From: Pelagomonas calceolata
Taxonomy: Eukaryota
Assembly (NCBI GenBank): GCA_918797485.1
Contig: CAKKNE010000003.1
Coordinates: 3,658,001-3,722,000, forward strand
Direction of reading: 5' to 3'
Length of the DNA stretch: 64,000 nt
This document shows, one piece after another, positions 2,029 through 64,000 of this stretch (position 1 is the first letter of the stretch; each line of letters begins with the position of its first letter). Below the pieces are notes generated by a model, which had not been told where the DNA came from, ran no database searches, and saw only the letters and a program-made list of their open reading frames with translations. The translations under genes and the position numbers were made by a program.

Positions 2029-2665
2029 CTAACAGGCCTTCTTCTCGCTGTTGTTGCGCAGCCGCCCGTAAATTTGAGGCAACGAGACCACTACCGCGAG
2101 GCGCAGGAACGCGCTCGTATCAATACGAGACGCGTCCGCGGCGAGTGCGAGGTATATAACGAGCTCCAGGACGCATATGGTCGCACCCAGGAAGTCGCCC
2201 ATAACGCCGCCGAGGACCGACTGGCCGTAGGCGCCGGCGACGACCGTTCCCACCGCCGTCGCGGCGAGGACACGCATAGCAGCCTCAACGGGCAGCAGTC
2301 CGAGCGCGATGATCATGGCCGACACGATGGCCCCAAGCACGCGCCACGGGCCGAGAAGGCGACGGCTATCCCCAAACCAGTTGTAGAACTCCCCTTTGGC
2401 CTGTGTGCGAGATAGACCGTCACCGCCACGCCGTCGAGCAGATGATTTCCGCACCGCCTGTAACGTCGGCGTCGTCCACCACGTACTCGTAGAAAAATAC
2501 CAGCGGCGCCGCGGACGCCCGCGCCACACTTTGCGCGACGACGATCGCGGGGCCCGCGCCCGCCGACGCGCCGACGGCCCAGACCGAGGGCCCGAGGGCC
2601 GCGATCGTCGCGCACTTGGCCAAACACCAAAGGCCCGCGCCGACCGTCGCGTACGAGCCGCTTCC
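2029..2665 (-). pseudogene. cobS: Cobalamin synthase (CobS)-like C-terminal half, 2 exons (intron 2401-2464); N-terminal half not found
   Basis: Spliced product GSYATVGAGLWCLAK...AQSVARAS...DDAD|AKGEF...LGGVMGDFLGATICVLE matches the CobS C-terminal GGxTGDxLGA..E pattern and is hydrophobic; there is an in-frame TGA just upstream of GSGSY. Confidence 0.55.
2401..2456. mobile_element. Degenerate introner family A copy in the cobS-like gene
   Basis: CTGTGTGCGAGAT...GATTTCCGCACCG; donor 8 nt outside; flanks CCTTTGGC/CCTGTAAC (5/8). Confidence 0.6.
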
Positions 2666-3344: not shown

Positions 3345-6300
3345 CTAGTTCGACGCCGCCGCACGCCGTCGTTCCCGCTCCCGGCGGTCGACCTCGCGGC
3401 CGACCGCCTTCGTCAGCTCCTCCACGAGCAAGATGGGCAGCGAGAACTTGGCGACGGTGATCCAGTTCGCCTTCGTAAGCGGCGCGAGGCCGAAGAGGCC
3501 GCGGAGCCACGGCGCATGTAATAGGAACATATGCAGCGCGACGGGCAAGGCGACTCCGGCGAGGAGCCAAGGATTGGCCCACGGCGCGACGCGCAGCAGC
3601 GAGTGGTCGAGCGACACGGCGCTCAGCGCCTTGAGCCTGCGCGGACGTCGACCGGTGAGCTCCAGCCGGCACGCCGTCGAGCAGAAACACATGAATACAG
3701 TGTCACGTCGACGGTGTCGAGGCACGCCATCGAGCAGACACGGCGTAGTTGCGTCGACGGCGTGGGAGGGAGCGACATGATGCACCAAGAAGCGGGACGC
3801 CGCGCGACTCACATCTCCATCGCGACGAGCGTCGTCAAGGCTAGAGTTTGCGCGGTGGCCTTGACAGCGCCTTTCGCGCCGAAGGCCCCAGCACAAGCAT
3901 CGCTCCCCGCCTGTGTGGAAATCAACCAGTGTGTCGGGTGCACCCGACAATTCTTCACTAAGTCATTTCTCGGCGATGACGTGGCCGCGCTGGCTCCGTC
4001 GAGCGGTGAGGAACCGGCATCGCCACGCCATCGAGCAGGCGTCGCGTCGATGGCGTGGAGGACGACGCGACGATTCAGCACGAACGCGCCGTAAAAGCTT
4101 GATTTCCACACAGCTCCCCGCGTTGATGGGAGCGAAGTCGGCCCACGCCGGCTCCTTCAGGTCGCACGACGCCCACGACCGCAGCCGCTGTCGACTTACA
4201 CCGCGATCCTTGAACTCGTTGAGGAACACTTGGATCGTCGCGAAGCCCACATAAGCACCGGTGATGGCATATCTACCAAGTAACCACGGCGTCAGGATCG
4301 GCGCCTTCGGGTCTCTGGGCGGTCTGGACATCGCATCAGGATCGGGCGGATTAAACCCTAAGGCAGTGGCGGGCGGCCCATCAGTGACGAGGTTCACCCA
4401 CAACAACTGCAGCGGCGTGAGGACGTCCGGCACGCCGAGACACGTAGCACCGAAGACAGTAGCGACCTCGCCGAAATTACAACTCAACAGAAAGCAGACA
4501 AATGCTTGCATGTTCTTGTAGATCCCGCGACCTTCTTCCACGGCGGCCACAATGGTAGCAAAATCATCATCCATGAGGATCATGTCCGCCGCTTGCTTGG
4601 CCACCTCCGTGCCCGCGATGCCCATCGCCACACCGATAGAAGCTTGCTGGAGCGCCGGAGCGTCGTTGACGCCGTCGCCCGTCATCGCCGTGACGTCGCC
4701 GTGCGCGTCGGCCAGCAGCTTGATGATGCGCTGCTTGTCGGCCGGCGCCGTCCTACAAAACACGCCGTCGCCCGCGGACGGCGCGAGCAGGTCCTTGCGC
4801 CGGCCCTCCGCTTCGGCCGAGTCGTCCGCAAAGAACGCATTGCCCTCCCAGGCGCGCTCGTCGCTCTCCAGAATACCCAATTCCTTCCCGATGGCGACGG
4901 CCGTCTCCTTGCTGTCGCCGGTGATCATGAAGACTCTCACCCCAGCTGACTTGCATCGCGCTATCGCTCGCTTCGCCTCCGGGCGCGGGGGATCCCGAAT
5001 GCCCGCGACGCCTTCCAGGATCAGATCGGACTCAAACGCCTCGTGGGCCGCGGGCCCGCCCCGTTCCACGTCCTCCCACGCGGTGACGTCCTTCGTCGCG
5101 AGCGCGAGGCACCTCAAAGGTCGAGACGCCATCGCCGTGACTTTCTCAATGAGCGCGGATCGCGTCGACTCGTCCAATGAAACAACAGACCCGTCCTCCC
5201 GGCGCACGCGCGTGCACCGCGCGATGACCGAGTCCGGCGCGCCCTTGACATATAACGACGTGGCATCGCCGCGCGTGCAGACCGTGGACATGGACTTACG
5301 TCCTCTATCAAACTCCAACGTCGCCTTCCGCTCGAAGGCGTGGCGCCAGGACAGCGCCGCCCGCTGCCAGGCGCCGGCCTGCTCGTACCCGGCCGGCTTT
5401 CGGAACGGGGGCGGTCCTAGTTTTTCGGCGAGGACGCGCAACGCGCATTCTGTTGGCTCGCCGACTCGAACAAATTCGCCCGAATCCTCGTCCCTTGCCA
5501 ATTGCGCGTCGTTGCACAGCGCACAGACGGACGCGCACTGCAATAATCGAACGTCGGCACAACCATTGCGCTCTTCAAAGCCTCGCACGTCACCGTCGGT
5601 CGGATCGTACGAGCCACCTGTCACTTCCAATTCGTCAAAAGTGCCCGACGACGGAATTAACAAAGAGACGACTGTCATCGCGTTCGTCGTGAGCGTGCCC
5701 GTTTTGTCACTACAAATGACCGACGTGCATCCCAGCGTCTCGACGGAGGGCAAGCGCCTTACGACGACGCGCCGCGCGGCCATCCTTCTGGTTCCTAGAG
5801 ACAAGCATAGGGTGATAACAGCAGGCAACCCCTCGGGGATGGCCGCGACGCCCAACGCCACGGCTCCTTTGGCGTAATGGGCCGCGCCCTTGAGTCGGTT
5901 CCCGCCAAACACCGGAGACCCGAACCTCGGCACGGAGGCCGCGAACGTCGCCGCGCAGATGCCGCCGATGACCAGTGTTAATTGAGAACCGAACTCGTCG
6001 AGCTTTTTTGCGAGGGGCGTCTTCTCCCTATCGGCTCTAGCTGCATCTACGCCCGCTTGCACTCTTCCTATCTGCGTCGACATGCCTGTGGCGACCACAA
6101 CACCGGTCGCGTGGCCCCGCGTCACGACCGTGCCCGCAAATACAATGTTCGACCGGTCGGCCAGAGGCGCCTTTTCATCAGATACAACATCGAGATCCTT
6201 GGACGTGGTCACGCTTTCGCCCGTCAGCGCGGCCTCGTCGGTCGAGAAGGCCGACGTCTTGAGTTGGAGCAATCTACAATCAGCAGGTACCTTGTCCCCG

Positions 6301-7014
6301 ACCCTCAAATACACGACATCACCAGGAACTAATTCGGACGCCTGGACCTCGCCGTCCCAGGCGCTGTTGCGTCGCACGCAGCACCTTGCTGGTTGTAATT
6401 TCTCCAATGCAGCTAGCGCACCATCTGCCGAGGATTCTTGCCAGACACCTACTGCGGCGTTCGACATCAGGATCAAGGATATGACCACGGGGTCGACCCA
6501 GGCCGTCGGGTCCTCGGCGTCGAGCATGCCTAGTACTGCTGATAGCACCGCGACGCCCACCTGCGCGACCGAACGGCCTCGAAATCGGAAAAGAAACCAC
6601 CCACGTCATCGTGAGATGGACACGAGTCGCGTCGATGGCGTGAAGGCGCCTCTACACAACGGGACGCCGAGATCGCACGAGTATCTGCACGAGTCGATCG
6701 TCGAACTGGTCCAAAAGCATCTGCCACTGCGTCCTCTTCGCAGCTTGGACGAGGACGTTCCTTCCCGACACTTCTCTTCTTCTTGTCACTTCGGCCTCGG
6801 ATAGACCGGCGTCCGGTTTCGCCGCGAAGCGCGTCACAGTGTCCGTGGCCGTCCAGGCGTGGGCACTTTCGGCCTCGGCGACGGTGGGCAGTGCCGGCGC
6901 GGCCGCGGCCGCGGGCGCGGGCGCCGCGGATCCGCCGCGCAGCGCGAGTGGCCGCAGCGCGCGCCGCCGCGGCAGCGCTGCGGCGAGGCCCGCGCATAGC
7001 AGCAATGCGCGCAT
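3345..7014 (-). CDS. P-type IIA (SERCA-like) Ca2+-ATPase, 4 exons (introns 6561-6678, 3911-4121, 3637-3812), with N-terminal signal-like presequence
   Basis: Motifs LTGES, AAIPEGLP, CSDKTGTLT, KGAP, MITGD, MTGDGVNDAPAL, LLWVNLVTDGPPATALGFNP; splicing restores the frame through MEM|LKALS. Confidence 0.93.
3911..4113. mobile_element. Introner / MITE family A, 203 bp, 15-bp TIR, perfect 8-bp TSD CTCCCCGC (3903-3910, 4114-4121)
   Basis: CTGTGTGGAAATCAA...TTGATTTCCACACAG interrupting the Ca-ATPase CDS. Confidence 0.92.
6561..6678 (-). mobile_element. Introner-like intron, family B
   Basis: Aligns end to end with 41989-42109 in infB. Confidence 0.7.
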
Positions 7015-10167: not shown

Positions 10168-10884
10168 CTAGTCGTCCTCCTCCATCCACGTCCCCTTCTT
10201 CGCCATGGAGTCCGCGTCCCACGGCAGCGTCACGCAGGCCACTTTTCCCAGAATGGTCCAGCCGTCGTAGGCGTCGTCCATCCTTCGGATGGAGCAGTTG
10301 CCGTTCGCATCGGCGTAGCAGAAGAAGGACCGGTCGCTGAAATCGATTTCGCCCCGGTCGATGATCACGAGGCATTCCTTCTCGTCGATCATCAGTCCGA
10401 GTGAGCCGGACGAGGCCACAATAGCGACGGGATCCAACGCGCCGCAAATGAGATCAGAACCGGGCATCGCCACGACGCCGTACTCGGCACCATGAGCATC
10501 CGGAAAGTCAAATAACCAGAGGCCGTCCTGCTCCGGCGGCTCGGGCGCCATCGGGACCGCGGTCACCTCCGCTTGTGTTAAGCCGGGGTAGATCCCTGCT
10601 ACACGGACGATGCGCGGCCACAGCACGCCGTTATCTAACTGGTCCAAAGGTAAAAAACAAGACGCTTCCCCATGCAACCCTTCCCCGACGCTCTGGACCT
10701 CCGCCTGGGGCGCGGAGGCAAACGGTGACTCGTCGGCCATGGTCAACGCGGTCCCGGCCTCTCCATAACGACTCGTGTCCCAGCCGCCCGCCGGCTCGCT
10801 TCGTAGGATTGTCCTTCGTGGCTGTCTTGCGACGGGCGCTTGGAGCGCGGCGGCGCCGGCGAGGAGTAAGGTGGCGCGCTGCAT
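10168..10884 (-). CDS. Hypothetical protein with bipartite plastid-like presequence
   Basis: 238-aa ORF; signal-like MQRATLLLAGAAAL followed by an Arg-rich transit-like segment and a globular remainder. Confidence 0.7.
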   Translation of the reverse strand: MQRATLLLAGAAALQAPVARQPRRTILRSEPAGGWDTSRYGEAGTALTMADESPFASAPQAEVQSVGEGLHGEASCFLPLDQLDNGVLWPRIVRVAGIYPGLTQAEVTAVPMAPEPPEQDGLWLFDFPDAHGAEYGVVAMPGSDLICGALDPVAIVASSGSLGLMIDEKECLVIIDRGEIDFSDRSFFCYADANGNCSIRRMDDAYDGWTILGKVACVTLPWDADSMAKKGTWMEEDD

Positions 10885-11337
10885 GGTGAATTAGTTTGTG
10901 GGGCTCCCGGAGCGAGTGCTTCACGGCTGCGGGCGCTGCACACACTGTCGTCGCCACACGCTGGCTGGTGTCCGTACAGCGGGACGCGCGTCAATGTGCA
11001 AAGCCCTGGAGCTGTGCGGTAACTCCCGCCAACCCTGGCTAGCTGTGCTGTGTTTTAGCACCGGCCTCGCCCGCAAAAACACTGACATGCAAGCTGAGTT
11101 ATCTAGCGTCGACACACTAGCCCTAATGTCAAGGACATTAGGTCCTATCTCGTCAAGGACCTAGGCAACTCGATGGTAGCTGCCTATGGCAACCGGGGAG
11201 GAATGGGGTCGGACTCGGCGGAGTCCGAGACGAGCTCCGAGACGCGCGCGACAGTAGACGCTCCGTCCACTAGTCCTAGCACCGTAACGAACAATAACCC
11301 GCCAGACGCCATCGCCGCAATAACAATCAAGAGATAA

Positions 11338-15885: not shown

Positions 15886-16515
15886 GACGAATGCGTCGAC
15901 GGCGTACCCGCGTGCAGCCTGCAGCAGCTCGTGCGTTGACTGCGCGCAGCGATTCTCTGGCGTTTTCTTCTCCTGGGCGTTGCTGCACCAATGGATGAGT
16001 GCGTTTTAATGCAAAACCTCGCACGTTGACGATTTTTGCAGAGCATTCAACAACGACGCAGACAAGCATGCTTGCTAGTGTCTTACAGCTCTAGCCCGGC
16101 GCCAACTCAGCGCAAAGGACGATCCCACCGAGATATAGACGACGGAGGCCTCTTCTATTCAAGTAAAGTCCCCCGGCAGCGCGCGCGTCGGCGGGTGACG
16201 CGCGGAGTCCCTCGTTATACGACGGCGCCTTCCGGTCCTTGCCGTCCTTAGGTTATCTTTCGCGTCGATGGCGCCTGGCTGCACCTAAGTTCGCTGTTCT
16301 CGTTATCCGGATATTGAGCTAGTTATAACCCACTAGGCATCCCTAGATCATGAAGTAGCGCTTGCGCAGTGTGGTTTTGGTGCTGGGCAGTGTGGCGGCA
16401 GCCGGTGGGACCAGCCGGCGCGGAGATCCTGGTGGCCTTGGGGCGTTGAGAACTTGGCAAGGGTTCTGGTGGCCCTTGTTGGGCAGCCCAAGGGACCAGC
16501 GGCGGCTAGGAGGCC

Positions 16516-18405
16516 ATGGCCTTCCCCGCTCTGAGGCGCGCTTTGGTGGCGGTCGCGCTGTGTCGCGTCGTGGACGGCTGTGACTGCTGGGGGTGGTGGA
16601 CCTGCACCTGCTCTTGGAATTTTTGCACCTGCGCCGCAGCGCCGGCGCCGGCGCCCGCGCCCGCACCGGCGCCGGCTCCGGCGCCAGCCCCGGCGCCGGC
16701 GCCAGCCCCGGCCCCGGCGCCGGGCGACGACAACTCGGGTTCGGTCGGGGCGACCAGCGGCTCCTTCGTGTACGTCGATCAAGCGAAGAGCTTCGACGAC
16801 GCGCGCGCGTACTGCCGCGCGAACTATCACGACCTCGCGTCGATCCACAGCTCCAGCGAGAATGCGGTAGTAGCGGCGCTTTGTCCCGGTGAATCATGCT
16901 GGATCGGGGGCTCCGACGCGGCCCAAGAGGGCACGTGGACCTGGTCGGACGGCACGGCGTGGGACTACGAGACCTGGAGAAGCAATCAGCCCGATAATTG
17001 GAATAATGATGAAGACTGTCTACAAATTAGATCCGATGACAAGTGGAACGACGGTAGTTGCAATGCCGATGATGATCAACCGTTCGTGTGCGAGACGCAG
17101 GTGGCGGCTGATTACGCTCAATGCATGCAGTGGTTCGGCAGCACCGAGTACGGTGGCGGATACGACCATTGCTGTTTCCGCCTTGACAACAACGCGCTCA
17201 CGTGCCCGACGTGGGAGTCACGCTGCTCGGATCTAGTCAGCGGCGAGGCAGACTACGCTCAATGCATGCGATGGGCTGGCAGCACCGCGTACGGTGGGAA
17301 ATACGACCATTGCTGTTTCCGCCTTGACGACAACGGGCTCACGTGCCCGACATGGGAGTCGCGATGTGAGGCGCTCACGCTGGTCCGGGTCCCGGCGCCG
17401 GGCGACGGCGGCGGCGGCGGCAAAAAGAAGGGCGGCGGCAGCGCCGCCGCCGGCGCCATCGTAATGGGGGTCGGCTTCGCCATCTTCTTAGGCTGCTGCC
17501 TGGCGGCGGTGCTGGCGGAGCAGTGCCGCAAGCGCGCGGCGGAGCGCGACCAGGTCGCGCCGGCGCCGGCGCCCCGGGTCGAGCTCCCACCGCGGTGCGC
17601 GCGGCCGGCGGCCGCGCAGCGCCCGCGCGGCCTGAGGATCGAAAGCGTGGCGGCGACGGAGGCCACCCTCGCGTGGGAGCAGGGCTCCGCGGTGAGCTTC
17701 GAGGTGCAGTGGCGCAGGACCGGGGGCGCCTGGCAGCCGGGCGCGACCGTCAGGAGGAGCAAGGCGCGCGTGACCGATCTGGACGCCGGCGGCGCCTACG
17801 CGTTTCGCGTGCGCGCCTTCGGCGGCGACTGGTCGTACGAGGTCTCGGCGCGGCTGGCGGCACCGGCACCTCGCGCGCGGCCGGCGGCCGCGCAGCGCCC
17901 GCGCGGCCTGAGGATCGAAAGCGTGGCGGCGACGGAGGTCACGCTCGCGTGGGAGCAGGGCTCCGCGCAGAGCTTCGAGGTGCAGTGGCGCAGGACCGGG
18001 GGCGCCTGGCACCCCCGGTGCCTACGCGTCAGGAGGAGCAGGGCGCGCGTGAGCGATCTGGACGCCGGCGGCGCCTACGCGTTTCGCGTGCGCGCCGACG
18101 GCGGCGACTGGTCGTACGAGGTCTCGGCGCGGCTGGCCGCACCGGCGCCGACGCCGGAGCCCCGGGCCGAGCCCGCGCCCCGGGCCGAGCCCGCGCCAGA
18201 GCGTTCGAGCGAAACAGACGAGTGCCCCGTCTGCCTCGAGCGGGCGCGCGATACCGCGTTCATGCCGTGCGGGCACCGGGTCTGCGCCGAATGCGCCCGC
18301 ACACTCTCCGGGACGGCCTGGAGAGGATCGGGGCCGAGGGGCGATAGTGAGTCCCGGTGCCCCGTCTGCCGCCAGCCGTTCACCGGGACTCTCCGGCTCT
18401 TCTGA
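16516..18405 (+). CDS. Type I membrane protein: signal peptide, (AP)n stalk, C-type lectin, 2 Cys-rich repeats, TM, 2 FN3-like repeats, C3HC4 RING
   Basis: CTL: ARAYC..LASIHS..WIGG..WSDG..QPDN..EDC..WND..C; TM AIVMGVGFAIFLGCCLAAVL; RING CPVCLE...PCGHRVCAEC...CPVCR. Confidence 0.85.
   Translation: MAFPALRRALVAVALCRVVDGCDCWGWWTCTCSWNFCTCAAAPAPAPAPAPAPAPAPAPAPAPAPAPAPGDDNSGSVGATSGSFVYVDQAKSFDDARAYCRANYHDLASIHSSSENAVVAALCPGESCWIGGSDAAQEGTWTWSDGTAWDYETWRSNQPDNWNNDEDCLQIRSDDKWNDGSCNADDDQPFVCETQVAADYAQCMQWFGSTEYGGGYDHCCFRLDNNALTCPTWESRCSDLVSGEADYAQCMRWAGSTAYGGKYDHCCFRLDDNGLTCPTWESRCEALTLVRVPAPGDGGGGGKKKGGGSAAAGAIVMGVGFAIFLGCCLAAVLAEQCRKRAAERDQVAPAPAPRVELPPRCARPAAAQRPRGLRIESVAATEATLAWEQGSAVSFEVQWRRTGGAWQPGATVRRSKARVTDLDAGGAYAFRVRAFGGDWSYEVSARLAAPAPRARPAAAQRPRGLRIESVAATEVTLAWEQGSAQSFEVQWRRTGGAWHPRCLRVRRSRARVSDLDAGGAYAFRVRADGGDWSYEVSARLAAPAPTPEPRAEPAPRAEPAPERSSETDECPVCLERARDTAFMPCGHRVCAECARTLSGTAWRGSGPRGDSESRCPVCRQPFTGTLRLF
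16637..16722 (+). repeat. (Ala-Pro)n coding hexanucleotide repeat
   Basis: GCGCCG-type tandem units. Confidence 0.9.
17107..17367 (+). repeat. Two-copy Cys-rich coding repeat, period 141 nt
   Basis: ADYAQCMxWxGSTxYGGxYDHCCFRLDxNxLTCPTWESRC twice. Confidence 0.9.
17599..18148 (+). repeat. Two-copy FN3-like coding repeat, period 276 nt
   Basis: Near-identical DNA copies starting at 17599 and 17875. Confidence 0.9.
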
Positions 18406-18497: not shown

Positions 18498-20531
18498 TTA
18501 CGCGGCGTCGCGCCAGGATTCCGCAAGCGCGCGCTCGACCATGGCCTCCTCCTCGGCCGCCGACGTCGGCGGCACTAGCGGCCCCGCCGACGAGCCCTCC
18601 CCCTCGAAGGACGCCGCGAGCTGGGCCGATTGGCGCGAGGAGACGGCGAGCTGGTACTGATCCTCGGCCGCGAGCTGGAGCGCGAGGGCCTCGTCGTCGG
18701 CGGTGGGCGCGGAGGCTCCGGAGAGCGGCGCGCCGGCGTCGAAGAGGAACGCCGCGACGTGGGCTTGGTCGTCGCCGCCGGGAGACGTCACGCCGCCGAG
18801 CTTCTCGAGGAGCTCGTCGGCGCACCGCTGGCGGTTGTAGAGGGCGTGGCCGTCGAGGCCCTCGCGGCCCGTGAGCATCTTGCGGTGGCAGAGCTGCAAC
18901 TCGCAGACGTGCTGCGTCCTGTCAGCCCGGAGCACCAGGTTCACCATGACGTCCCTCCACTTCGAGGGCGGCGGATGGTTGATGCGGTCCTTGACGCGGA
19001 CGACCGTCACTTCCTTCGATTCTTCGAGGCGTCTAAGGAGGTCCGTCAAATCCTCGAGCGTGTCACAAATTATCATGTCGCGGACGACGTCGCAGACGCG
19101 GGACGTGTCGCGCGGCGCCTCGGGCTGCAGGGCGCACTTTTCGACGATGCGCGAGGCCGACTTGAGCGGCGGGCGCTTGCGCTCGACGCGGCGGCCCGCC
19201 GCGGTGGCCGCGGCAACGAGGGCGCCGACCGCGGCGTCGAACGCGGGCGCCGCCGCGGCCGCGTCGACGAGCAGCGGCACGACGCGCGTCGCACGCTGCC
19301 TGATCGGCGTCGCCGCGCCCGGAAACGACCGCACCGCCGCGTCGTACCGGGCCTTGGCGTCGCGCTCGGACTCGGCGACGGTCGCGAAGATGGACTCGTA
19401 GACGCCCGCGAAGAACGCCGTCGCCTGCGCCGACACCTCGCGGAACGTGTCGGCGCCGACGGCTGCGACCTCCGCGGCGATGGCGGCGTCGACCCGCGCG
19501 GCGAGGTGCGGGCACTCGCGCTCCAGCGCGGCGGTCTCGGGCAGCTCCTGCTGCGCCCGGTTCGCGAAGTGGTAGTCGGCGGCGAGCTCGGGGCGTTTGG
19601 CGAACTGGACGAAGCGCCGGAGCGCGCCGTCGGGCATGGGCGCGTCGACGCGGCCGCTGGCCGCGGCGCGCAGCTCCTCCGCGCGCCGCCGCGCCGCCGC
19701 CGCGTCCGCGTCGTCCGGCGCGACGCCGAGCGCGAAGGCGTAGTCGAGGTGGTCGTAGAGCTCCTTGAGCGGCGTCGCGGCGGCGGCCGTAAGCTTCCGG
19801 AGCTTCGCCCGCGCCGCGCCCACGGCCTTCGAGTGCTCCTGGTCCAGGCGGGACTCCGTTCGCCGCAGTCTCCGCATCCGCGCCTGGTGGAGCGCGATGC
19901 CGTACCGCGGCGCCTGGTCGAGCCACGCGCGGCACGCGTCGGCGACCTGGTGGAGCGCCTCGCTTTTTATGGAATTGAGGCCCAGGTCCCGCAGCACCGC
20001 CTCCGGCTCCGCCGCGGTCGCGAGGTCCGCGCCCGTGACCCCGGCGCGCTCGAAGGCCGTGGTGACTTTCGTGGCCGTGCGCGCGTCGAGCAGCCCCCCT
20101 CCAAATTCTTCGCGCACCTGCTGCAGGAGCTGCTCCGCGGTCCACTCGTTGACCGGCCGGCCCTTGCGGTCGGCCAACTTTTTGCAGTGGGCGCGGTGGA
20201 GCGCCAGGACCTGGTCGAACGCGGCGCGAACGGCCCGGCGTTCCCGGAAGCCGGGCGGCACGCCGCGCGCGTCCATGAGCGCGCCGACCGCGTCGGCCTC
20301 GACGCCGTCGCCGTCGCAGGCCGCGACGAGGGCCGCGCCCGTCGTCCGCGAGAAGCGGGCGACGGTGCGGTCGTCGACCTTGTTCGCGCGCAGGTGGAGC
20401 GCGAGCGCCGCGGCCGTCCAGTACCGCGGCGGCCGCGTCTTGCTGGCCTTGGCCGCGTCCTCCGCGTGCACGCGCCGCTGCCGGTGGCGGTCGCCGCAGG
20501 CCTTGACGCAGGCCCGGCAGGCCTTGATCAT
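18498..20531 (-). CDS. SAM-like + RelA/SpoT-type nucleotidyltransferase-like domain + 2 UIM-like motifs; start uncertain
   Basis: LKSASRIVEK...DVVRDMI...VRVKDR...WRDVMVN...HVCELQ; VNEWTAEQL...FERAGVTGADL; DDEALALQLAAED and EEEAMVERALAES. Confidence 0.7.
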   Translation of the reverse strand: MIKACRACVKACGDRHRQRRVHAEDAAKASKTRPPRYWTAAALALHLRANKVDDRTVARFSRTTGAALVAACDGDGVEADAVGALMDARGVPPGFRERRAVRAAFDQVLALHRAHCKKLADRKGRPVNEWTAEQLLQQVREEFGGGLLDARTATKVTTAFERAGVTGADLATAAEPEAVLRDLGLNSIKSEALHQVADACRAWLDQAPRYGIALHQARMRRLRRTESRLDQEHSKAVGAARAKLRKLTAAAATPLKELYDHLDYAFALGVAPDDADAAAARRRAEELRAAASGRVDAPMPDGALRRFVQFAKRPELAADYHFANRAQQELPETAALERECPHLAARVDAAIAAEVAAVGADTFREVSAQATAFFAGVYESIFATVAESERDAKARYDAAVRSFPGAATPIRQRATRVVPLLVDAAAAAPAFDAAVGALVAAATAAGRRVERKRPPLKSASRIVEKCALQPEAPRDTSRVCDVVRDMIICDTLEDLTDLLRRLEESKEVTVVRVKDRINHPPPSKWRDVMVNLVLRADRTQHVCELQLCHRKMLTGREGLDGHALYNRQRCADELLEKLGGVTSPGGDDQAHVAAFLFDAGAPLSGASAPTADDEALALQLAAEDQYQLAVSSRQSAQLAASFEGEGSSAGPLVPPTSAAEEEAMVERALAESWRDAA

Positions 20532-20957
20532 ACCATCAGCCTCGACTCCGTCCACCACCTGAGAGCACCATAACGCGCCAAAGGGCTGCCATGCAACGCA
20601 GGCGCTGCCTCGGCCTGCGAGCAGAGCTTTGGGCAGTCGAATTGTTTTTTAGGCGTCCGCCGGCCACCCGTCGCGCGCCCGAGGCCTGAGGGAGGCGTCG
20701 GATCGAGTCGAACGAAAGGCAACTTTCGATCTACTAGCCCTCGTTCTGCCGGCCGACAACGCCGCCGGCACGCGAGCTGCCCGCCGAATCCAGCCGGCGA
20801 CTCGGCAGCCTCCCAGTTGCGTCGGGCCCATCGCCAGCAGGGCAACCGACCAGCGGGCTTCGCTCCGACCGCCGCCCGCGCGCAAGCACAGCGTGAGGTA
20901 AGCCATCCAAACCGGGCAGCCCCCCACGCCGCCACACGGGACGCACCGCGCACCACC

Positions 20958-23360
20958 ATGGGCGGCGGCGGCTCCAAGACCGCCCCCGAGGGCGAAAATG
21001 AGGAGGACGAGCTGCCCAGGGAGACGGAGGACGACAAGAAGGACCCGAACAACAAGCCGCTGGACGTGGGCAAGGATTTTGGGGGACCCTGCAAGAAGCG
21101 CAAGTGCACCGATGTGCTCTGTACATTACTCTTAGCCTTCGCGTGGTTCTGCATGACGGTCGTGGGCTTGGCCTGCATTCCTGGGAGCCCGATAGAAGGC
21201 ACTATGGGCCTGCAGAAGGGCAACCCCTACAAATTAATTAATGGCATCGACTACAAGGATCGCGTCTGCGGCATCGATTCAGATGTCAAGGATAGATTAA
21301 AATTGTACTACTTACCGACCGGCTCCGGAGTCTGCATCAAGAAGTGCCCGGAAAAGCAGAATGCGCAAGCGTTTCATTGTACGGACGATGCTCAAGAAAA
21401 ATTGGACAAAATCGACAGAACACAGACGGGCTGGGAGGTGCTTTATGTGGCCAAGGGCTTCGAGATGGTCAAGGAGTGCAACGACCCGAAGTGCAGCGAC
21501 CCGCAGTCGCTGCGGCGGTGCCAGTGCTGCGCGCCGTACTACCCGACGAACGACGTCATGAATTATTGTGTGAGCGAGCAAGCCCAAGCGGTCGCGGCGG
21601 CGGCCGGCGACCAGGCGGCCCAGCAGGCCGCCGACGCCACGAAGCCGTGCGACCCGACGCCGCCGCCGGTTGCCGGCGCGACAAAAGCACCCACACCGTT
21701 ATGTGGCGCGGCGTTGGCCGCCGAATCCCAGGAGCGGGACTACACCGAAAAGATGTACGCCGACATGATGGTGAGCATGTGGTACATCTTTGGCTTTGGC
21801 TTTTTTGGCGCGATATTTGTGGGCTTCGTGTATACCTTCATCCTCAGGATTCCTGGCGTATTAGCATTAGTCGTGTGGGGCATCATCGTCGCCGTCGGCG
21901 TCTTCTGGCTCGCCCTGGCGGCCATGTGCTACCAGACGTCGGTGGCCTGGAAACAAGATGAAGATCGCGACGCGAACCAGGCGAACGGCATGCTGTACTT
22001 GGCCTACTTCTGCGCCGCGCTCTGCGCGTTGTGGGCCTGCACGATCTGCTGCCTGCGGAAGCGCATCGCGCTGGCGATTGGCATCACGAAAGAAGCCGCG
22101 AAGTGCATCGCGACGATGCCGATCATCATCGCGCGCCCGCCGCGTCCAATTTTGAGCCCTGTCGGACCGCGCGGTCGCCTCGACGCGATCTTCATGGGTC
22201 GCGGCGATGGCGTAGGGCTCACACGCCATCGACGCGACTCGTCAGACTCGTTCGCGCCGCTTCGACGGCGTCCCGAGCCACGGACCGCGCGCAGGTCTTC
22301 CCCGTCGTCCAAGTCATGGCGTTGATCGTCTTCGTCATCCCCTGGTTCATCTACTGCCTCTTCCTCGCTTCCAGTGGAGAGATGGAGACGGTCAAGGGCG
22401 CGCGGCAGATGGTCTACGACGAGACGACCTTTAAAGCAGGGTGGTACATGATATTTGTGTACTTCTGGAGCTCGGAATTCATCATCGCGCTCGGACAGAT
22501 CATCCTCGCGCTAGCCGTATCAACATGGTACTTCACGCGCGACAAGGGCAAGATCGGCAATTCGACCGTGATCTGGAGCTTCAGACAAGGCGCGTGGTAC
22601 CACTGGGGCACGGCGGCCTTCGGCAGTCTCATAATAGCCATCATCAAGACGATCCGAGCGATGATCAAGTACATCCAGAAGAAGTGCAAGAACATCAAGA
22701 ATCCCGTGGCCAAGAAGATCGCCATGGCGGTGCTCTGCTGCATCGACTGCTGCATGTGGTGTGCGTGACCCAGTGTACCACTTTGATCGGGACGCGGCCG
22801 CCGCGATGGCGTCGACGTGGCCGCCAGAGAGCACACACTGTCGTTCCCCCACAGGCATCGAGAAGTGCATGAAGTTCATCAACAAGAACGCCTACATCCA
22901 GACGGCGATCTTTGGGTACCACTTCTGCAAGGCGGCGAAGTGCGCGTTCTTCCTGATTCTCAGGAATATTGCTCGTATTATGGCGCTGTCGATCGTGTCC
23001 GGATTCGTGCTGCTCCTGGGCAAACTCGTGATCACCGCTGGAGCTACATTTTTATGCTATGTGTGCCTGGCCTACACTCCAGTAAGCGACGAATTGAACT
23101 ACATCTGGCTTCCATTAGTTTTCACGGCTATAATAGCCTTCTACGTCGCCGCGATGTTCAATGAAGTGTGGGGCATGGCCATGTCGACGATCTTGCAGTG
23201 CTTCTGCGCCGACGAGGAAATTTATAAAGGAGACAAGGACGCGATGTACGCCGGGTCCGACCTCAAGGCGACGGTCTCGAACTCCAACAAGGGCAAGTTC
23301 GCGAAGAAGTCCAAGGTCGCGGCGGCGCCGGCCGAGGACGAGGGTGACGCGGTCATCTAG
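20958..23360 (+). CDS. Choline transporter-like protein (CTL/SLC44), 3 exons (introns 22131-22294, 22761-22854)
   Basis: KRKCTDVLC, GIDYKDRVCG, YHWGTAAFGSLIIAI, CIEKCMKFINKNAYIQTAIFG..FC. Confidence 0.92.
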
Positions 23361-51030: not shown

Positions 51031-52170
51031 TTATTTTTTACTCGTCGGCGGCGTTTCGCGGGCGGCGAGCGCGGCTCGCGCGTTTCGCAGGAATTCCTCA
51101 ATCCCCGCTGTGACCGGGTGCGTGCCGCCCATCAAGCGCCTTGCGATCCGTGCCGTGTCTTCGAGCGTCGTCACGGCCTCGCGGAGATCGTCGAGCGTCG
51201 CGCCGTCGGCCCGGCAGAGCGCCTCCGCGTACATCGACCGCATCCTGAGCGTGGCGTCATTACTATCGCCGAGAATACGTCGTGCCACAGGAACCACTTT
51301 GCGTGATAGTGACTTGACTTCTTCGAAGCGCGATAGATCCTTAAGGGACGACGCGTAGTTGTTGGCCGCTCGGAGGGTGCTCTCATGCTCCTCGCCCAGT
51401 AACTTCAAACGTCCGGAGTATACATCCCGTTTGATCTGCAGTGCCCGCTCATGCCGTCCCAGGCTTGCATACGTTGTCGCGAGATTGCTCTGCACGTCAA
51501 GAAGGACCCCTTCTGGTACGTGAAGGCGCCGCATCATAGACAAATTAGCCTCTTGCACGGACAACGCGTCGTTATAGTGGCCTGCCGCGTATAAACCGCC
51601 TGCGAGCTGCCTCATCGACAAGAGCCAAAATCTATCCGTCTCCGGCCGGCCCATGTATGTCTTCCAGCACGCCCATCCGAGCGCGCACTTCACGACGCCG
51701 TGGTATTTTTGCTCACACAAGCTGCACGTGTGCCAACGATCAAATCTCTCACCAAACGCCTTGGCGTCCAGATTGTTCTCCTCGGCTTCCGCGACCAAAA
51801 TCTTCGCCTGCTCCGCCAAGCACGACACGTGCGCGAAACCCGCTGTCCCACGGCACGCGCACCCGCGCACGAGGCCCTCCTTCGTTTTCCAATGCAAAGC
51901 TTGCGTGCAGATGTAGCACGTCTGGCCCTTGGTGTCGTCCGCGCACGCCTCCGCCGCGACCGCGACTGCCTCCGAGTACTTCTTATTTGCGTTGTATTGT
52001 TCAGCGCCACCAGCCTTTTTTATTGGTTTGCAGAGCTGGTCATGGCCGCCCTCTTTCCAGTGCTGCACCTGGCATTCAGCCCCACAGTAGCGGGTGCTGC
52101 AGCGGCCGCATTTCTTGCCCAAGGATAAGCCAAGCTCGGTGGCGCAGACGGCGCACTGCGTGAGGATCAT
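51031..52170 (-). CDS. zf-MYND + RINGv + TPR (kinesin light chain-like) protein
   Basis: CAVC...CGRC...YCGAECQ..HW..H..C; CYIC...CACRG..GFAHVSCL...CSLC; TPR helices. Confidence 0.88.
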   Translation of the reverse strand: MILTQCAVCATELGLSLGKKCGRCSTRYCGAECQVQHWKEGGHDQLCKPIKKAGGAEQYNANKKYSEAVAVAAEACADDTKGQTCYICTQALHWKTKEGLVRGCACRGTAGFAHVSCLAEQAKILVAEAEENNLDAKAFGERFDRWHTCSLCEQKYHGVVKCALGWACWKTYMGRPETDRFWLLSMRQLAGGLYAAGHYNDALSVQEANLSMMRRLHVPEGVLLDVQSNLATTYASLGRHERALQIKRDVYSGRLKLLGEEHESTLRAANNYASSLKDLSRFEEVKSLSRKVVPVARRILGDSNDATLRMRSMYAEALCRADGATLDDLREAVTTLEDTARIARRLMGGTHPVTAGIEEFLRNARAALAARETPPTSKK

Positions 52171-52431
52171 CTTCTATATGGTCAAATCGCTCGGGGCTGC
52201 CCTACGCTGCCCTACGATGCCCTGCTGGCTCGGCTGCTTTGTTTGCTAGTGTGTTACTGCCGCTAAGCTGCGGTCGAATTAATTATTGAGCCGTCGTGAT
52301 CGATCGTGCGTAGCGTTCGCTGCAGCATCTGGGCCGCGTAGAACAACCTTTACCGACCGCTGCTCCACGTCGCGGATCGACGCGATCCCACGTTGCAGCA
52401 GACAAGAGATCGAACCACAGCTAAAAAAGGC

Positions 52432-54042: not shown

Positions 54043-55359
54043 CTACTTCGCCCGGAAGCCCTGGACCGTGTCGACGAAGAACTTCGCGTGCGGTTCAGGC
54101 GTGTCGGCCTCGATGCCGTGGCCGAGGTTCATGACGTGGCCGTTGTGCGCGCCCGCTTGCAAGATTTTTTCCGTCTCCTCCTTGATCTTCTCCAGGGGCC
54201 CGTCCCTCAATAGTTTCGGGTCCAAGTTCCCCTGCAAGGCCAAATGATCCGGCATCTTCGCTCTGACGTCCGCGAAATCAACCGTGTAGTCGAGCGACAC
54301 GCAATTGACACCCGTAGTAGCCAACAGATCCAGGAACTGGCCGTCCTTGGAATGGATATCAGGGGCCATGTAGATAATCACGGGCGTCGTCGGGTGTTTG
54401 GCTTTGATGGCCTCCACCACCCGCTTCTGGTACGGCATCGCGAACGTCTCGTACTGGTCCTTGGGCAGGTGCCCGGCCCACGAATCAAACACCTGGATGA
54501 CCTGGGCGCCCTGGTCGACCTGGTAGCAGGCGTAGTCGCCGATGTTGTCCGCGAGCTTCGACAGGATGCCGTGGAGCAGCTCCGGGTTTTCCTCGCGCAT
54601 CTTTTTGACCTCCGCAAATCCCGAAGTGGTCCCCGTCTTGCCCTCGACGAGGTACGAGGCCAGCGTGAAGGGCAGGCCCACAAACCCAAGGACCGTCGCC
54701 TTGTTGCCGACCTCTTCTCGCAGCTTGCCGAGGACCTCGCCGACGAACGGGCACGCGGTGGTTGCGTCGAACTCCCCTTTACCCTTGAATTTCGCCAGGT
54801 CCGCCTCCGTGCGGATCGGCGGGATGGAGATGGCGCCGCCTTCCGAGATCTGGAACTCGACGCCCATGGCCGGTAGGGGCGTGAGGATGTCGGAGAAGAG
54901 GATGACGCCGTCGACCTGTGTGGAAATCAAATTTTACGGCGCGTTCGCGACCTCCAAGCCATCGGCGCGACGCCTGCTCGATGGCGTGGCGATGCCGGTG
55001 CACCCGACTCACTGTTTGATTTCCACACAGCCGTCGACGCCGTACGCGCGGAAGGGCTGCAGGGAGATCTCCAGCGCCGCCTCGGGGATCTCGGACCGCT
55101 CCCTAAAGGTGGGATACTTGGCCACGAGGTCCCGGTACACTTTCATGTGGCGGCCCGCTTGCCTCATCATCCACACGGGCGTCCGTTCTACTTTCTCGCC
55201 GCGCGCGGCGCGCAGCAGCAGCGGCTCATCTGTGGCTGCAGCTTCAGTAACCACAGCCGTTCGCGGCCTTGCCCTGGCGCCGCGGGCCGGGCCGGTCGCC
55301 AGCGCGCTGGCGCATGCGACGCACGCCAGCGCGCGCATCGCTATCCTTCGTACAGCCAT
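54043..55359 (-). CDS. hemE: Uroporphyrinogen decarboxylase, plastid-targeted, 2 exons (intron 54916-55038)
   Basis: [45 protein letters not shown]. Confidence 0.96.
54916..55030. mobile_element. Introner family A, 115 bp, perfect 8-bp TSD CCGTCGAC (54908-54915, 55031-55038)
   Basis: Same TIRs; reverse complement aligns to 3911-4113 with internal gaps. Confidence 0.92.
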
Positions 55360-56069: not shown

Positions 56070-59000
56070 TTACTTCAGCTGGTAGTGCCGGATCCCCACC
56101 TTCTCCGCGAACACCTGATTGAGCACCTTTTCGCAAGTCTCGACATCCCCCCTGGGCACCAATTTCTTCAGCCTTTTGTCCCGGAACACGTTCGCCTCGA
56201 GATCGTTTTCCGGAAAGGAGTACGCCTCCTTCTTCAGCTTCAGCGCCGAGCAAATCTCCTCGACGCGGTCAAGCCGGTAGGGTGGTCCTGGCTCAGAGAA
56301 CGCGTCGGACTGCGCGTCGACCAAGCGCACCACGCATGACGCGCCCGGGATCACCTCGCACTTCTTAACGGCCTCGTACGGGTCGGCCGCGTCCAGCACG
56401 GCGCGAGGGCACCGGCCCCGGAACAGGGGCAGGATGTGGTTTCCGCCGTCGACGTAGGATTTCCGCGCGAGGAACGACGTAGGCCGCGTCGGCTTCTGCA
56501 GGATCGGCAGCACCGCGAAGAATATGTCGTCGGCGTCGAGCCGCGGCGTTTGGCCCTTCACCAGGGGATCAAACCTTCGGACTTCGAAGACCGCCGTCAA
56601 GTGACCTGTGTGGCAATCAACCAGTGAGTATTACGGTCCGGGAACGACGTCGCGTCGATGGCGTGGGGCGCCCGAATTTTGATTTCCGCGCAGCTCGAGA
56701 CCCCCGGGTTTATCCCTAAATCGTCTAAAGCCATCCTGGAACGTCGGCGCGTTGTAGGGCTTCTCCCAGTCGTGTTTCAGCGTGAACCTGTGTGGAAATC
56801 AAATGTCGGGCGCCCCACGCCATCGACGCGATGTTGTCGCCGTGGCCGCGTCGGATCGATAGCGAAACCTAGCTCACTGGTTGATTTCCACACAGGCGCG
56901 CACTGCGCGTCGTCGGCCACGGAGGGGTCCTGGAAAAATAGGCCCGGGGGCGTCAAGACGGTAATAACCTTGTAGACGCTCGGCGGGTCCTTGCCGCTGT
57001 TAAACAATCCTTTCCTCTTCGAGGGGATGTTCCGCAGGCCGTCCACCGCTATAGAAAAGCCGAGGTCCGGCGCGTACGACGCGATGCGACGCATGTCTAA
57101 GAAATGCGAAACGCCGTTCTTGAATATCTCCGCCATGGCCTGCTCCACGTCGCCGCCCGCGTCGGCGACGTGGCCCGAACATAGCCCAGGGTCGCGCCGC
57201 CGCCTGCGCCGCTTGAACAGCTCGCGGTCGAGCGCATTTATAGAGCATCTCGAAGAGTCGTACGCGCCCGAATTATACGGCGGCGCCGGACTGTCAAGAC
57301 CCAGCGCGGCCCACCGTTGTTTAGGCACCGTCGCCCTTGAAAGGACCTCGAGGCCATCAGAAGACGTCGGCGCCGGCTGCACTCGCACTAAAACAGAACA
57401 GCCGAGCCATTTCTTATTGTTATTGAGGTCGTCCCAGCGCAGTGTCTGAATGTGGGGGTGCGGCCGCGTGAAGATGGGAAGTTGCCAGCCACCCTGGTTG
57501 AGGCAGTAGCCCTGGGACTGTTCATCGGCCGGTTGGGCCTTGTTGTCGCCCGGGGCGTGGAACAGATTTAACAGAGTGTAGCCCAGGCATCGGGCTTTCC
57601 TTCCGGAAGGTAAATCTTCGTCCAGCGCGTCGATGCGAATCAGCAGCGTACTCGTCGGGTCGAAGGCAGCTCTACGGAACTCCGCCACGAGGTCGAATCT
57701 CGGCGTGAAGCGCTTGCCATCCGCATCACAAAGCTTGACCACATCATCTTGTACTTTTTCGCCCTGGGCGTAGAGTCTTACTGTAACTCGGGACGCGCCT
57801 GCAGAATCAGGCAGCCCGCGGATGCCGTCGACAAACACGTCTACGCCAGAACCATCAGAGAAGGGTTCTGTGGCAGCGGGCCTTTTCGTATCCAGGAAGC
57901 CGTGCTCATCATTTATAGCCTCGTCATTCTCCTCTTGAGGCGCGTCCTCCTCATCCTCCGAGCTTTGCACGATGTTCCTTGTCCAGGCATCTTCCGGGAT
58001 CTGGACGCCGGGGTCGTCTGAGTCTTCTGACGAGGAGGAGGACGACGAGGACGAGGATGACGATGAGGCCGCCCGCACCGACGACGGCCGTTTAAGTGGA
58101 GGAGGCGCTTTCACTGGAAGTTGTGCCGGAGGCACGTGGACATCCTTAGCGGTACCGCCCCAGACCGCATACCTATCACCCCTTCTCATACAGTCGACTT
58201 TGTGAGGAGGTAGAGGCGCGAGCGCGTGGAAGATGCGCACCCTTACATCGCTCTTGTATTTCGACGGTGGCCAATTATCATCGCTCTTCCAGGGCCCCTT
58301 CTGCAACGGCAGCTTCCAGGCTCCTGATCTCAACTGTCCAGAAGAGAAGGGTTCCGGTGACGCGCTACCGACACACGTAAAGTCCTCTCCGTCCAATTCG
58401 CGCGACGCCTGCACCTCGAGCACCAACCGCAATCGTTTCGACGCGCCACACACGTACAACGACGGTTGATCAGCAAATGAACAAGACCCGTCATCAGACG
58501 TCCGCGCACATCTAGTCGCTCGAGACCGACCCAGCGCACCTCCACATGGATTCTTGCCGTCATACAACGCGTAGACGACGCGGACGCGCCTGTATTCCTC
58601 TGAACCAACGAAGCCGTCGAGCACGACCCCGAAACCCGTACTAGGGTCGTACGGCATTTTTTGAGGGGCGTACGGATCGAGAGCGACGTCGGCCGTGTCC
58701 ACCTCCCGCTGCAACGCTTTTTCGACGCGCAAGGCCTGGATCCTTCTTCTCTGAGCCTCGAGCCAGTAGTCGTGCTCCCGCTTTTGCCTCGCCTCGTGGC
58801 CCTCTCTGTCCAGTCGATCTCTTAACTCAAGAAGCTGCTCCCGTCTCCTACACTTCTCCAACTCAAAGTCCAACGCCACTAGTTCCTTCCTTTGCGACGC
58901 GTCGAGGGGGTCCTCGTCCTTGGGCTGCGGCGCGGGGGCTTGCGCGACCTGCGCGGCATCGCGTGATCACGACGACGGCGTCGAGGCGGCGTGGCATTGC

Positions 59001-61784: not shown

Positions 61785-62741
61785 TTACGACGTTTCGCGG
61801 GCGGCGAGCGTTTCGCGCGCGGTTCGCAGGGAAATCCCAATTCCCTCTACAAGCGGGTGCGCGCTCCCGAACACGCGCTGAGCCCTCGGTTCCGCGTCCT
61901 CGAGCGTCATCACGGCCTCGCGGAGATCGTCGAGCGTGGCGTCGGGGTTCTTGTAGGACACCTCCGCGTAGATCTTCTTCATTTTGAGCGTCAGTCTATG
62001 TCCTTCTCCGAGGACACGTCGCGCCACGGGGATCGTATTGCGGATCAGCGCCTTGGCCTCTTCGAAGTGCTTCAGAATAAGAAGGTTTGCGTGGTTGTTG
62101 GCTGCTATGAGAGTCTCTTCATCTCTCTCGCCTTTGAGCCTCAAATATCCAGAGTATACGTCCCGCTCCAATTGTAGGGCCTCTTCAAGCCGTCCGAGCA
62201 CTTGATACGAGTTCGCAAGATTGCTCTGCACCATGAGCATTTGGTCTTCTGGCGCGCCAAGGCGCCGCATCATAGCCAACTGGGCCTCTTTCACTGACAA
62301 TGCGTCCTCGTTGTTGCCTGCAGAGGATAAGCCGTTCCCAAGCTGCGTCATCGCCATTTTCCGAGTTTCATCCGCTTCGGGCCGTCCTACGTAGGTCTTC
62401 CAGCACGCCCATCCGAGCGCGCACCGCGCGACGCCGTGGTACCGTTGCTCGCACAGACCGCATATATACCACCGCAAAAATCGTGGCCCGCTTCTGCGCT
62501 CGACCGCGACCTGCGCCTGCCGCGCCAAGCACGACACGTGCGCAAAACCGTTTTCGCCTCGGCACGAGCATCCGCGCACGAGGCCCTCGTCCTCATCGCC
62601 CTCGCCGTAACAGATGTAGCACGTCTGGCCCGCCGTGTCCTCCGCGCACGCCGCGACCGCGGTCCGAACAGCATCAGCATAGTGCTGGTCGGCTTGGTCC
62701 GCCGCCAGTAAGGAAGGCACTGCAGCGACGAGCTCGGCCAT
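61785..62741 (-). CDS. RINGv + TPR protein (paralog of 51031-52170, lacks MYND)
   Basis: CYIC...GLVRGCSCRG..GFAHVSCL; ALGWACWKTY; ATLDDLREAV.TLED. Confidence 0.85.
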   Translation of the reverse strand: MAELVAAVPSLLAADQADQHYADAVRTAVAACAEDTAGQTCYICYGEGDEDEGLVRGCSCRGENGFAHVSCLARQAQVAVERRSGPRFLRWYICGLCEQRYHGVARCALGWACWKTYVGRPEADETRKMAMTQLGNGLSSAGNNEDALSVKEAQLAMMRRLGAPEDQMLMVQSNLANSYQVLGRLEEALQLERDVYSGYLRLKGERDEETLIAANNHANLLILKHFEEAKALIRNTIPVARRVLGEGHRLTLKMKKIYAEVSYKNPDATLDDLREAVMTLEDAEPRAQRVFGSAHPLVEGIGISLRTARETLAARETS

Positions 62742-62933
62742 GGTCTCGCCCACCACTGCTGAATAGATGGTGTTCGATGGGCAGCTGTACGATGGGCGGG
62801 CGCGGCCTTGGTCACGGATAGATCACAGAATCAAATCGCAGAGCCATGGCCCAGGGTTCGGGGTTCGAGTCGATCTACGCGCTCCCGCTCCCCCGGGACC
62901 CGTCCGCCGGGCGAGGACTGCTCAGGATGGTCT

Positions 62934-63920
62934 TTACGCGCTCCCCGGCGACGGCGTCTCGCGGGCGGCGAGGGTGGCTCGCGCTTTTCGCAGACGGCGC
63001 TCAATCCCCACTGTGACCGGGTTTGCGCCACCGAACACGCGCCGCGCGGTCCGTTCAATCTCCTCCATCGTCGTCACGGCCTCGCGGAGATCGTCGAGCG
63101 TCGCGCCGTTGTCTTTGTAGAGCGCCTCCGCATAATACCACCTCATCCTGAGTGTGGTCTCGTCATTCTCTCCGAGAACGCGTCGCGCCACCGGCATCGT
63201 CTTGCGCAGCACCGACTTGGCTTCTTCCAAGCGCTTTACCCGAAGAACGGACGCCGCGTAGTTGCTGGCTGATATGAGGGTATGTTCATTTTCCTCGCCG
63301 TGAAGCTTCAAATATCCAGAGTAGACGTCGCGTCGCATCCGCAGGGCCTCTTCATGCCGTTTCAGCGCTTGATACGTGTTCGCAAGATTTCCCTGCACGG
63401 CGAGAATTGCGTGACGAATTGCGTGACGGTCCTCTGGTGCGCCATTGCGTCGCAGCATAGACAACTCGGCCTCGTACACGAGCAACGCGTCCTCGTGGTG
63501 TTCTGCAGCGGATAAACCGTTGGCAAGCAGCGTCATCGCGCTCCCCCGAGCCCAATCATCCTCCGGCCGCCCCAAATACGTCTTCCAGCACGCCCACCCA
63601 AGCGCGCACGCCACGACGCCGTGGTATTTTTGCTCGCACAGGCCGCACGTGTCCCACCGCATCCACCCCCTATGGGCGCGCTCGACCGCGACCTGGGCCT
63701 GCCGCGCCAAGCACGACACGTGCGCAACTCCGGCCGCCCCGCGACAGGCGCACCCGCGCACGAGGCCCTCTTCGTCGTTGCCGTCCATACAAATGAAACA
63801 CGTCTGGCCCGCCGTGTCGGCCGCGCAGGCAGCGACCGCGGTCCGAACAGCACTAGCATAGTGCTGTTCGGCTTGGTCAGCCCTCAGCAGCGGCGGTACT
63901 TCAGCGACGAGCTCGGCCAT
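62934..63920 (-). CDS. RINGv + TPR protein (tandem paralog)
   Basis: Same motifs and same MAELVA.VP.LL.ADQA start as 61785-62741. Confidence 0.85.
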   Translation of the reverse strand: MAELVAEVPPLLRADQAEQHYASAVRTAVAACAADTAGQTCFICMDGNDEEGLVRGCACRGAAGVAHVSCLARQAQVAVERAHRGWMRWDTCGLCEQKYHGVVACALGWACWKTYLGRPEDDWARGSAMTLLANGLSAAEHHEDALLVYEAELSMLRRNGAPEDRHAIRHAILAVQGNLANTYQALKRHEEALRMRRDVYSGYLKLHGEENEHTLISASNYAASVLRVKRLEEAKSVLRKTMPVARRVLGENDETTLRMRWYYAEALYKDNGATLDDLREAVTTMEEIERTARRVFGGANPVTVGIERRLRKARATLAARETPSPGSA

Positions 63921-64000
63921 GGTCTCGCCACCACCGCTGCAATCGATGATGTTCGATGGCTTCGATGGACAGCTGTACGATGGCAGGCGCGGCGTGTTCA

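Follow-up and report, generated by a model that had tools for sequence, protein, structure and literature searches.

Introner elements of Aureococcus anophagefferens were reportedly described by Huff, Zilberman and Roy in 2016. For Pelagomonas calceolata, the accessible text of Guerin et al. (2022; 10.1101/2021.10.25.465678 / PMC9481584) counts 956 putative introners and gives an intron-length peak of about 210 bp, GT or GC donors, AG acceptors and conserved TIRs. In the accessible part of a later dataset (Gozashti et al., 2025; PMC12130899, dataset sd07), the P. calceolata family fam2 has 340 introns (gt:281 gc:42), a 202-bp TIR element, a splice mode termed 'co-opt 5' carry 3'' and the label hAT, given on a RepBase hit. 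Both a mode in which the target-site duplication (TSD) supplies the donor and a mode that adds 12 nt are described in the available portion of Gozashti et al. (2022), and the 8-nt classes of Polarella are called 'similar to' A. anophagefferens in that of another account (10.1101/2020.10.14.339549). The TIR introner mechanism and its presence in P. calceolata are already known, in agreement with an earlier sequence-only reading of the present DNA, which had placed it with the pelagophyte introners. The present case is a clean, RNA-verified example of a transposon that creates introns and leaves proteins unchanged, and what it adds is modest.

We analysed one stretch of P. calceolata DNA, 64,000 nucleotides long (the window), from whose first letter positions are counted; it is eukaryotic DNA of about 63% GC. 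Its hemE product falls, at 90% identity, into a cluster with a protein named Pelagomonas calceolata. Our main reading, with a probability of roughly 0.93, is that the element at 3911-4113 (copy B) is a non-coding TIR repeat, spliced out with one 8-nt duplication through the AG of its TIR and the GC of the duplication, and probably put in place by a cut-and-paste transposase whose gene lies elsewhere.

Element copies in the window

The 15-nt TIR matches the window 8 times at two mismatches or fewer, against 0.01 expected from shuffles. The matches form four pairs: copy B, copy C (54916-55030, 115 nt), copy D (56606-56693, 88 nt) and copy E (56788-56895, 108 nt). Their 8-nt flanks agree at 8/8 positions in B and C, the two duplications that had been called perfect, at 5/8 in D and at 6/8 in E. 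Copy A (2401-2456, 56 nt) is degenerate, with 3/15 mismatches at the right TIR end and more than four at the left, and can still be assigned to the family from one TIR, from the internal motif and from flanks that agree at 5/8. Copy B is laid out as follows.

3911..4113, copy B, 203-nt non-autonomous TIR element with 15-nt TIRs, of the family's modal full length
3911..3925, plus strand, acceptor-side TIR, whose end ...CACAG on the minus (gene) strand is the 3' splice site
4099..4113, minus strand, donor-side TIR, containing an in-frame GT (the option that adds 12 nt)
4114..4121, minus strand, upstream 8-nt target-site duplication, whose opening GC serves as donor; removed by splicing
3903..3910, minus strand, downstream copy of the duplication, which stays in the exon
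4023..4058, internal inverted repeat with 12-nt arms, containing a motif that recurs across the window; predicted hairpin

The copies had been taken for one element family. The TIR is indeed common to them, but the family is not homogeneous: B and C have their interior in common (79% over 101 nt), D and E a different end (88% over 50 nt). The element had also been called self-contained; its TIR does carry the AG, but it encodes nothing and takes its donor from the host target sequence. The predicted RNA fold of the element (z -5.3) was set aside as a sign of function because it mostly reflects the TIRs.

In copy A the intronic duplication (2457-2464) begins GT and the exonic one (2393-2400) begins GC, a contrast found at 2 of 63 one-sided metagenome sites and reversed at 1; improvement of a GC donor to GT after insertion is a possible explanation.

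Several other genes of the window were noted. Three paralogous RINGv-TPR genes, one with MYND, lie on the minus strand (51034-52173, 61788-62822 and 62937-63998); they are 67-86% alike in DNA blocks and have relatives in metagenome loci L054 and L121. On the plus strand, a single ORF (16510-18402) combines C-type lectin, fibronectin III and RING domains and has repeats of roughly 140 nt inside it (17106-18172). A RelA/SpoT-region protein (18501-20648) and a protein with a Rubisco-assembly-chaperone C-terminal domain (10171-10890) are encoded on the minus strand.

Splicing of the copies

PolyA reads of one sample (runs X21, X22 and X24) were aligned over two stretches of the window, and contigs of two other samples (X12 and X13), taken by guess to be RNA, were added. 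Copies A to E lie in four host genes, all on the minus strand.

2401..2464, minus strand, intron A, 64 nt, GT-AG, copy A with its upstream duplication, in a CobS-like gene; 43+48 reads
3637..3812, minus strand, second intron of the ATPase gene, 176 nt, GT-AG, lacking TIRs and carrying the internal motif of the family; seen in 39+29 reads and a contig
3813..3902, minus strand, downstream exon of the ATPase, carrying on from the retained duplication 3903..3910
3911..4121, minus strand, intron B, 211 nt, GC-AG, in the gene of a SERCA-type ATPase; 34+32 polyA reads and one other-sample contig
4122..6560, minus strand, upstream exon of the SERCA-type P-type ATPase (Pfam E1-E2_ATPase, Cation_ATPase_C; 82% to protein P0121)
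54916..55038, minus strand, intron C, 123 nt, GT-AG, in hemE (Pfam URO-D); 127+66 reads and an other-sample contig
56606..56701, minus strand, intron D, 96 nt, GT-AG, in a gene without Pfam family; 20+21 reads and an other-sample contig
56788..56903, minus strand, intron E, 116 nt, GT-AG, in the same gene as D; 11+24 reads and an other-sample contig

All five copies that were said to interrupt four unrelated coding sequences are introns in RNA. All five joints run from a donor at the first base of the upstream duplication to an acceptor at the TIR end; the donor is GC in copy B and GT in A, C, D and E, as had been proposed for the ATPase and hemE. The two junctions foretold from sequence, 3911-4121 and 54916-55038, both appear exactly in the polyA reads; the skip at B has a 9-letter placement ambiguity, within which 3911-4121 with GC..AG fits. 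Copies B and D use their 'left' TIR as acceptor end and C and E their 'right' one, so both orientations of the element work. Plus-strand splicing of the five copies is ruled out by host-gene orientation and RNA strand.

Removal without a scar, which the sequence-only reading had deduced, is borne out by protein comparison. Frames join in 5/5 copies once the element and the upstream duplication are taken out, and in the SERCA ortholog (82%) the flanking matches are separated by 5 residues, the scarless form, and not by 9. For site C, 120 hemE proteins were examined, of which 17 fell outside the pattern; among the 103 matching it, 99 have the scarless spacing and 4 lack the anchor.

These data also bear on the alternative donor already considered for copy B, a GT inside the TIR that would add four residues (12 nt, AGSC). 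As the main form it would be in frame, the GC donor context of B is weak by consensus, and a 12-nt-adding mode appears for an Aureococcus sp. family in the available part of Gozashti et al. (2022, Fig. 2F legend). Yet the 211-nt skip is found in 66 reads and a contig, the corresponding 199-nt skip is absent among the 15 joints listed, and the ortholog has the scarless length; as the main form this donor is ruled out by joints and ortholog length together, and we regard it as very improbable. Minor use of the 199-nt skip at copy B may still occur, since 139 weaker joints lie beyond those listed. The stretch with copies C to E has 7 weaker joints beyond those listed.

A transcript spliced without a scar looks identical to the transcript of an empty allele, which limits what the joints can say, and the RNA sample and the window DNA may come from different strains; exon reads show almost no differences from the window sequence. 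A seawater metatranscriptome (X15), whose contigs are short, had no joint at the three sites examined.

Judged from a consensus of loose ends, thousands of polyA reads at 3910-4095 derive from one other locus, where a family copy is retained in the RNA. On what appears to be the transcribed strand, the upstream duplication there seems to begin TT and not GT or GC. In a DNA run, depth is in the thousands over the element and about 5 on the flanks, which is not a measure of copy number. The CobS-like (cobalamin synthase) algal gene at 2032-2748 on the minus strand has a weak Pfam hit, just below cut-off, and strong expression in the polyA reads; it could be linked to B12 remodelling.

Copies in metagenomes

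The 21-nt left end, with an exact left TIR demanded, was used as query against 4 of the 64 parts of a metagenome collection and yielded at least 121 stretches, or an estimated 2100 or so for the whole, so that the further copies expected of a TIR search do exist. Pairing with a right TIR ending CAG succeeded for 83 of 122 matches (99 with looser pairing), the other 39 being left out for a contig edge, a short flank or a decayed right end. The paired elements are 54-262 nt long, with a mode of 203 (12 copies). Flank identity is maximal at k=8, where it reaches 82%, and lies at 21-32% for other k; perfect duplications number 35 of 83. Together with the RNA joints, these sites uphold the division of labour in which the TIR contributes the AG and the 8-nt duplication, with its first base, the donor.

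Three groups, with 24, 4 and 3 members, can be told apart among copies 175-210 nt long; they have the TIR in common and each include 203-nt copies, although their interiors are only 45-53% alike in global alignment. The two further subfamilies of about 203 nt (L061, L166, L122 and L167; L138, L154, L062 and L065) differ in that one has a doubled hairpin motif and the other none. Within the group of copy B, the 11 full-length copies average 93% identity (89-96%, the range copy B itself shows to other full-length members) and none are identical, so that the claim of recent activity holds in the evolutionary sense and not for current activity.

Viral contigs contributed 53 loci with one exact TIR end each, taken as chance. 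One TIR end lies at the edge of a 2.7-kb proteobacterial MAG contig (L174, 2653-2673), which is probably stray algal DNA.

The donor rule

GT or GC stands at base 1 of the duplication in at least one orientation at 81 of 83 sites, against a background of 31%. We called a site clean if its duplication matches at 7/8 or better (n=52). Every clean site has a donor at one end at least, and 8 have donors at both, where 5.0 two-ended sites are expected under a one-sided filter (p=0.12). The one-sided clean sites, whose donor orientation is read from the dinucleotide and not from gene models, divide into GT and GC donors at 35:9, against a background share of 31%.

The same introner could instead owe its donor rule to a hAT-like transposase that prefers GT...AC targets, most insertions then being born spliceable. 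The 8-nt duplication fits such an enzyme; target motifs are tabulated for Hermes GTGNNCAC and hobo GTTTAAAC (PMC2577343); the matching P. calceolata family is labelled hAT, by RepBase blastn hit, in the accessible part of a published table; and over all 83 sites there is an excess of two-ended ones, 18 (of 81) against 7.8 under a one-sided filter (p=0.0006). The clean duplications are nevertheless either-or: independent symmetric ends predict 9 donorless and 17 two-ended sites, where 0 and 8 are seen. The element terminus, moreover, is CTGTG and not the YARNG of hAT, and the ORFs scanned (those of the window and 74 of 141 locus ORFs) included no transposase. We think this account unlikely; the clean sites do not favour a palindromic GT..AC target as a complete explanation. 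Some symmetric preference may contribute, since the two-ended excess over all 83 sites leaves room for it; that excess comes from the drifted sites (10/31).

In the set with looser pairing (99 of 122), the right TIR has lost its AG in 9/39 cases on the donor side and in 1/39 as acceptor (p=0.014), sides being assigned from the dinucleotide; the single acceptor-side loss was apparently mis-parsed. This one-sided decay and the either-or pattern of donors suggest that selection shapes the surviving insertions.

In the mechanism that we prefer, a DDE transposase acting in trans with an 8-nt staggered cut would mobilise the element. Since each TIR ends in CAG, an acceptor would be available in either orientation. 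Given a GT or GC at the start of the target, read on the transcribed strand, the spliceosome would remove the element and one duplication and leave the mRNA exact; exonic insertions that begin otherwise would probably be purged, and spliceable ones persist. Because exonic insertions would persist mainly with such a start, the donor rule would reflect selection more than symmetric preference. Later, deletions would shorten the interior, and the TIR on the donor side would drift along with the duplication inside the intron, the acceptor AG being kept. The branch point may also sit in the TIR, where TTGAT, which resembles the branch-point consensus, may be a candidate by its sequence.

Mode of spread

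No transposase was found among the 69 window ORFs and 74 of the 141 long ORFs of metagenome loci, no autonomous partner with the same TIR in the window or in 120 short loci, and no long TIR pair among the metagenome loci, the longest being 262 and 294 nt. No empty site appeared when the joined flanks of the 83 sites were compared with metagenome loci and window DNA.

The lack of a transposase or autonomous copy among the ORFs and loci scanned is consistent with RNA-based reverse splicing, or gene conversion between introns, as the route of spread, the flank matches then being splice-site similarities, as is the presence of the internal motif in introns without TIRs. Against such spread, the 8-nt duplications are specific to their sites and not the same from locus to locus, both orientations are in use, and the TIRs are perfect; we give it hardly any credence, and retain insertion by a transposase encoded elsewhere as likely.

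Three hemE proteins (P0129, P0132 and P0134) run through site C and break off later, where the window has no intron; one of them is 94% identical to the P. calceolata protein. They would fit unspliced DNA of a close relative that lacks copy C and carries another insert, a hint of lineage-specific insertions.

Internal motif and possible relics

A 17-nt internal motif has 18 matches in the window against 0.07 expected, 4 of them inside TIR copies and 14 outside. The outside matches lie near 6626, 10072, 12191, 14525, 22198-22238, 24476, 31690, 33448, 37121, 42489, 45220 and 59004, and in 3637-3812; these TIR-less sites are often intron-like stretches, some with a TIR-like acceptor end (e.g., near 33478 and 37220). 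A family profile gives weak window matches (E 1e-4 to 0.024) at 3647-3786, 6601, 7514, 22182, 37106 and 42297, where five shuffles gave 0-1 matches and the window read in reverse gave none. Intron 3637-3812 has profile matches of E 1e-4 and 3.5e-3. TIR-less motif carriers may be older introner relics, 3637-3812 being the one checked in RNA. All six RNA-confirmed introns in the two stretches are family members or motif carriers.

The six of six introns, the 18 motif matches against 0.07 and the three 203-nt subfamilies lead us to a tentative wider proposal, which we rate as somewhat improbable: most introns on P. calceolata chromosome arms, TIR-less ones included, would come from one TIR lineage, whose subfamilies of unrelated interior successively kept to a length of 203 nt, or 211 nt counting the duplication, perhaps that of one nucleosome repeat, and survived through a one-sided GT/GC filter. 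That filter, and not genomic GC, would then give the roughly 14% GC-AG introns of the species, which the available text of a pangenome preprint ascribes to genome GC content. Duplication-recruited GC donors account for 9 of 44 clean one-sided sites; such recruitment would offer an alternative explanation of these introns.

Comparison with known systems

The repeats are spliced introns in unrelated genes (5/5 copies, four genes), and their splice sites are fixed relative to the element ends, the AG at one TIR end and the donor 8 nt outside the other, as in introners. They are also MITE-like, being non-coding, 54-294 nt long and many in number, with a 15-nt TIR and an 8-nt TSD. The MITEs of the hAT superfamily likewise have short TIRs and an 8-nt duplication and are non-coding. 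We do not file the element as hAT, the type that the sequence-only reading had drawn from the duplication: the 8-nt length fits, but the terminus CTGTG lacks the hAT motif YARNG (given in the accessible part of PMC3014272), and no transposase is linked to it. TSD length and TIR sequence together provide a handle for finding the family's transposase.

Compared by mode alone and not by sequence, the element resembles two systems, as far as the accessible accounts go (10.1101/2020.10.14.339549; PMC10228655). The introners of A. anophagefferens carry one splice site and take the other from the duplication, in either orientation, and classes 6, 8 and 10 of the Polarella glacialis ILEs have 8-nt duplications that start with the donor, again in either orientation. 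The same holds here.

The subfamily structure and the either-or donor statistics were not found in the accessible portions of the published P. calceolata introner accounts searched. The fam2 table (PMC12130899), in its available part, gives no TSD, whereas the element here has one of 8 nt. No occurrence of the TIR string turned up in the published supplements or literature searched, so likeness to fam2 rests on features. On those, P. calceolata fam2, and also fam3 and fam39, are the nearest known families in the accessible part of the same source (PMC12130899); fam2 agrees with the present element in species group, length, TIR and splice mode.
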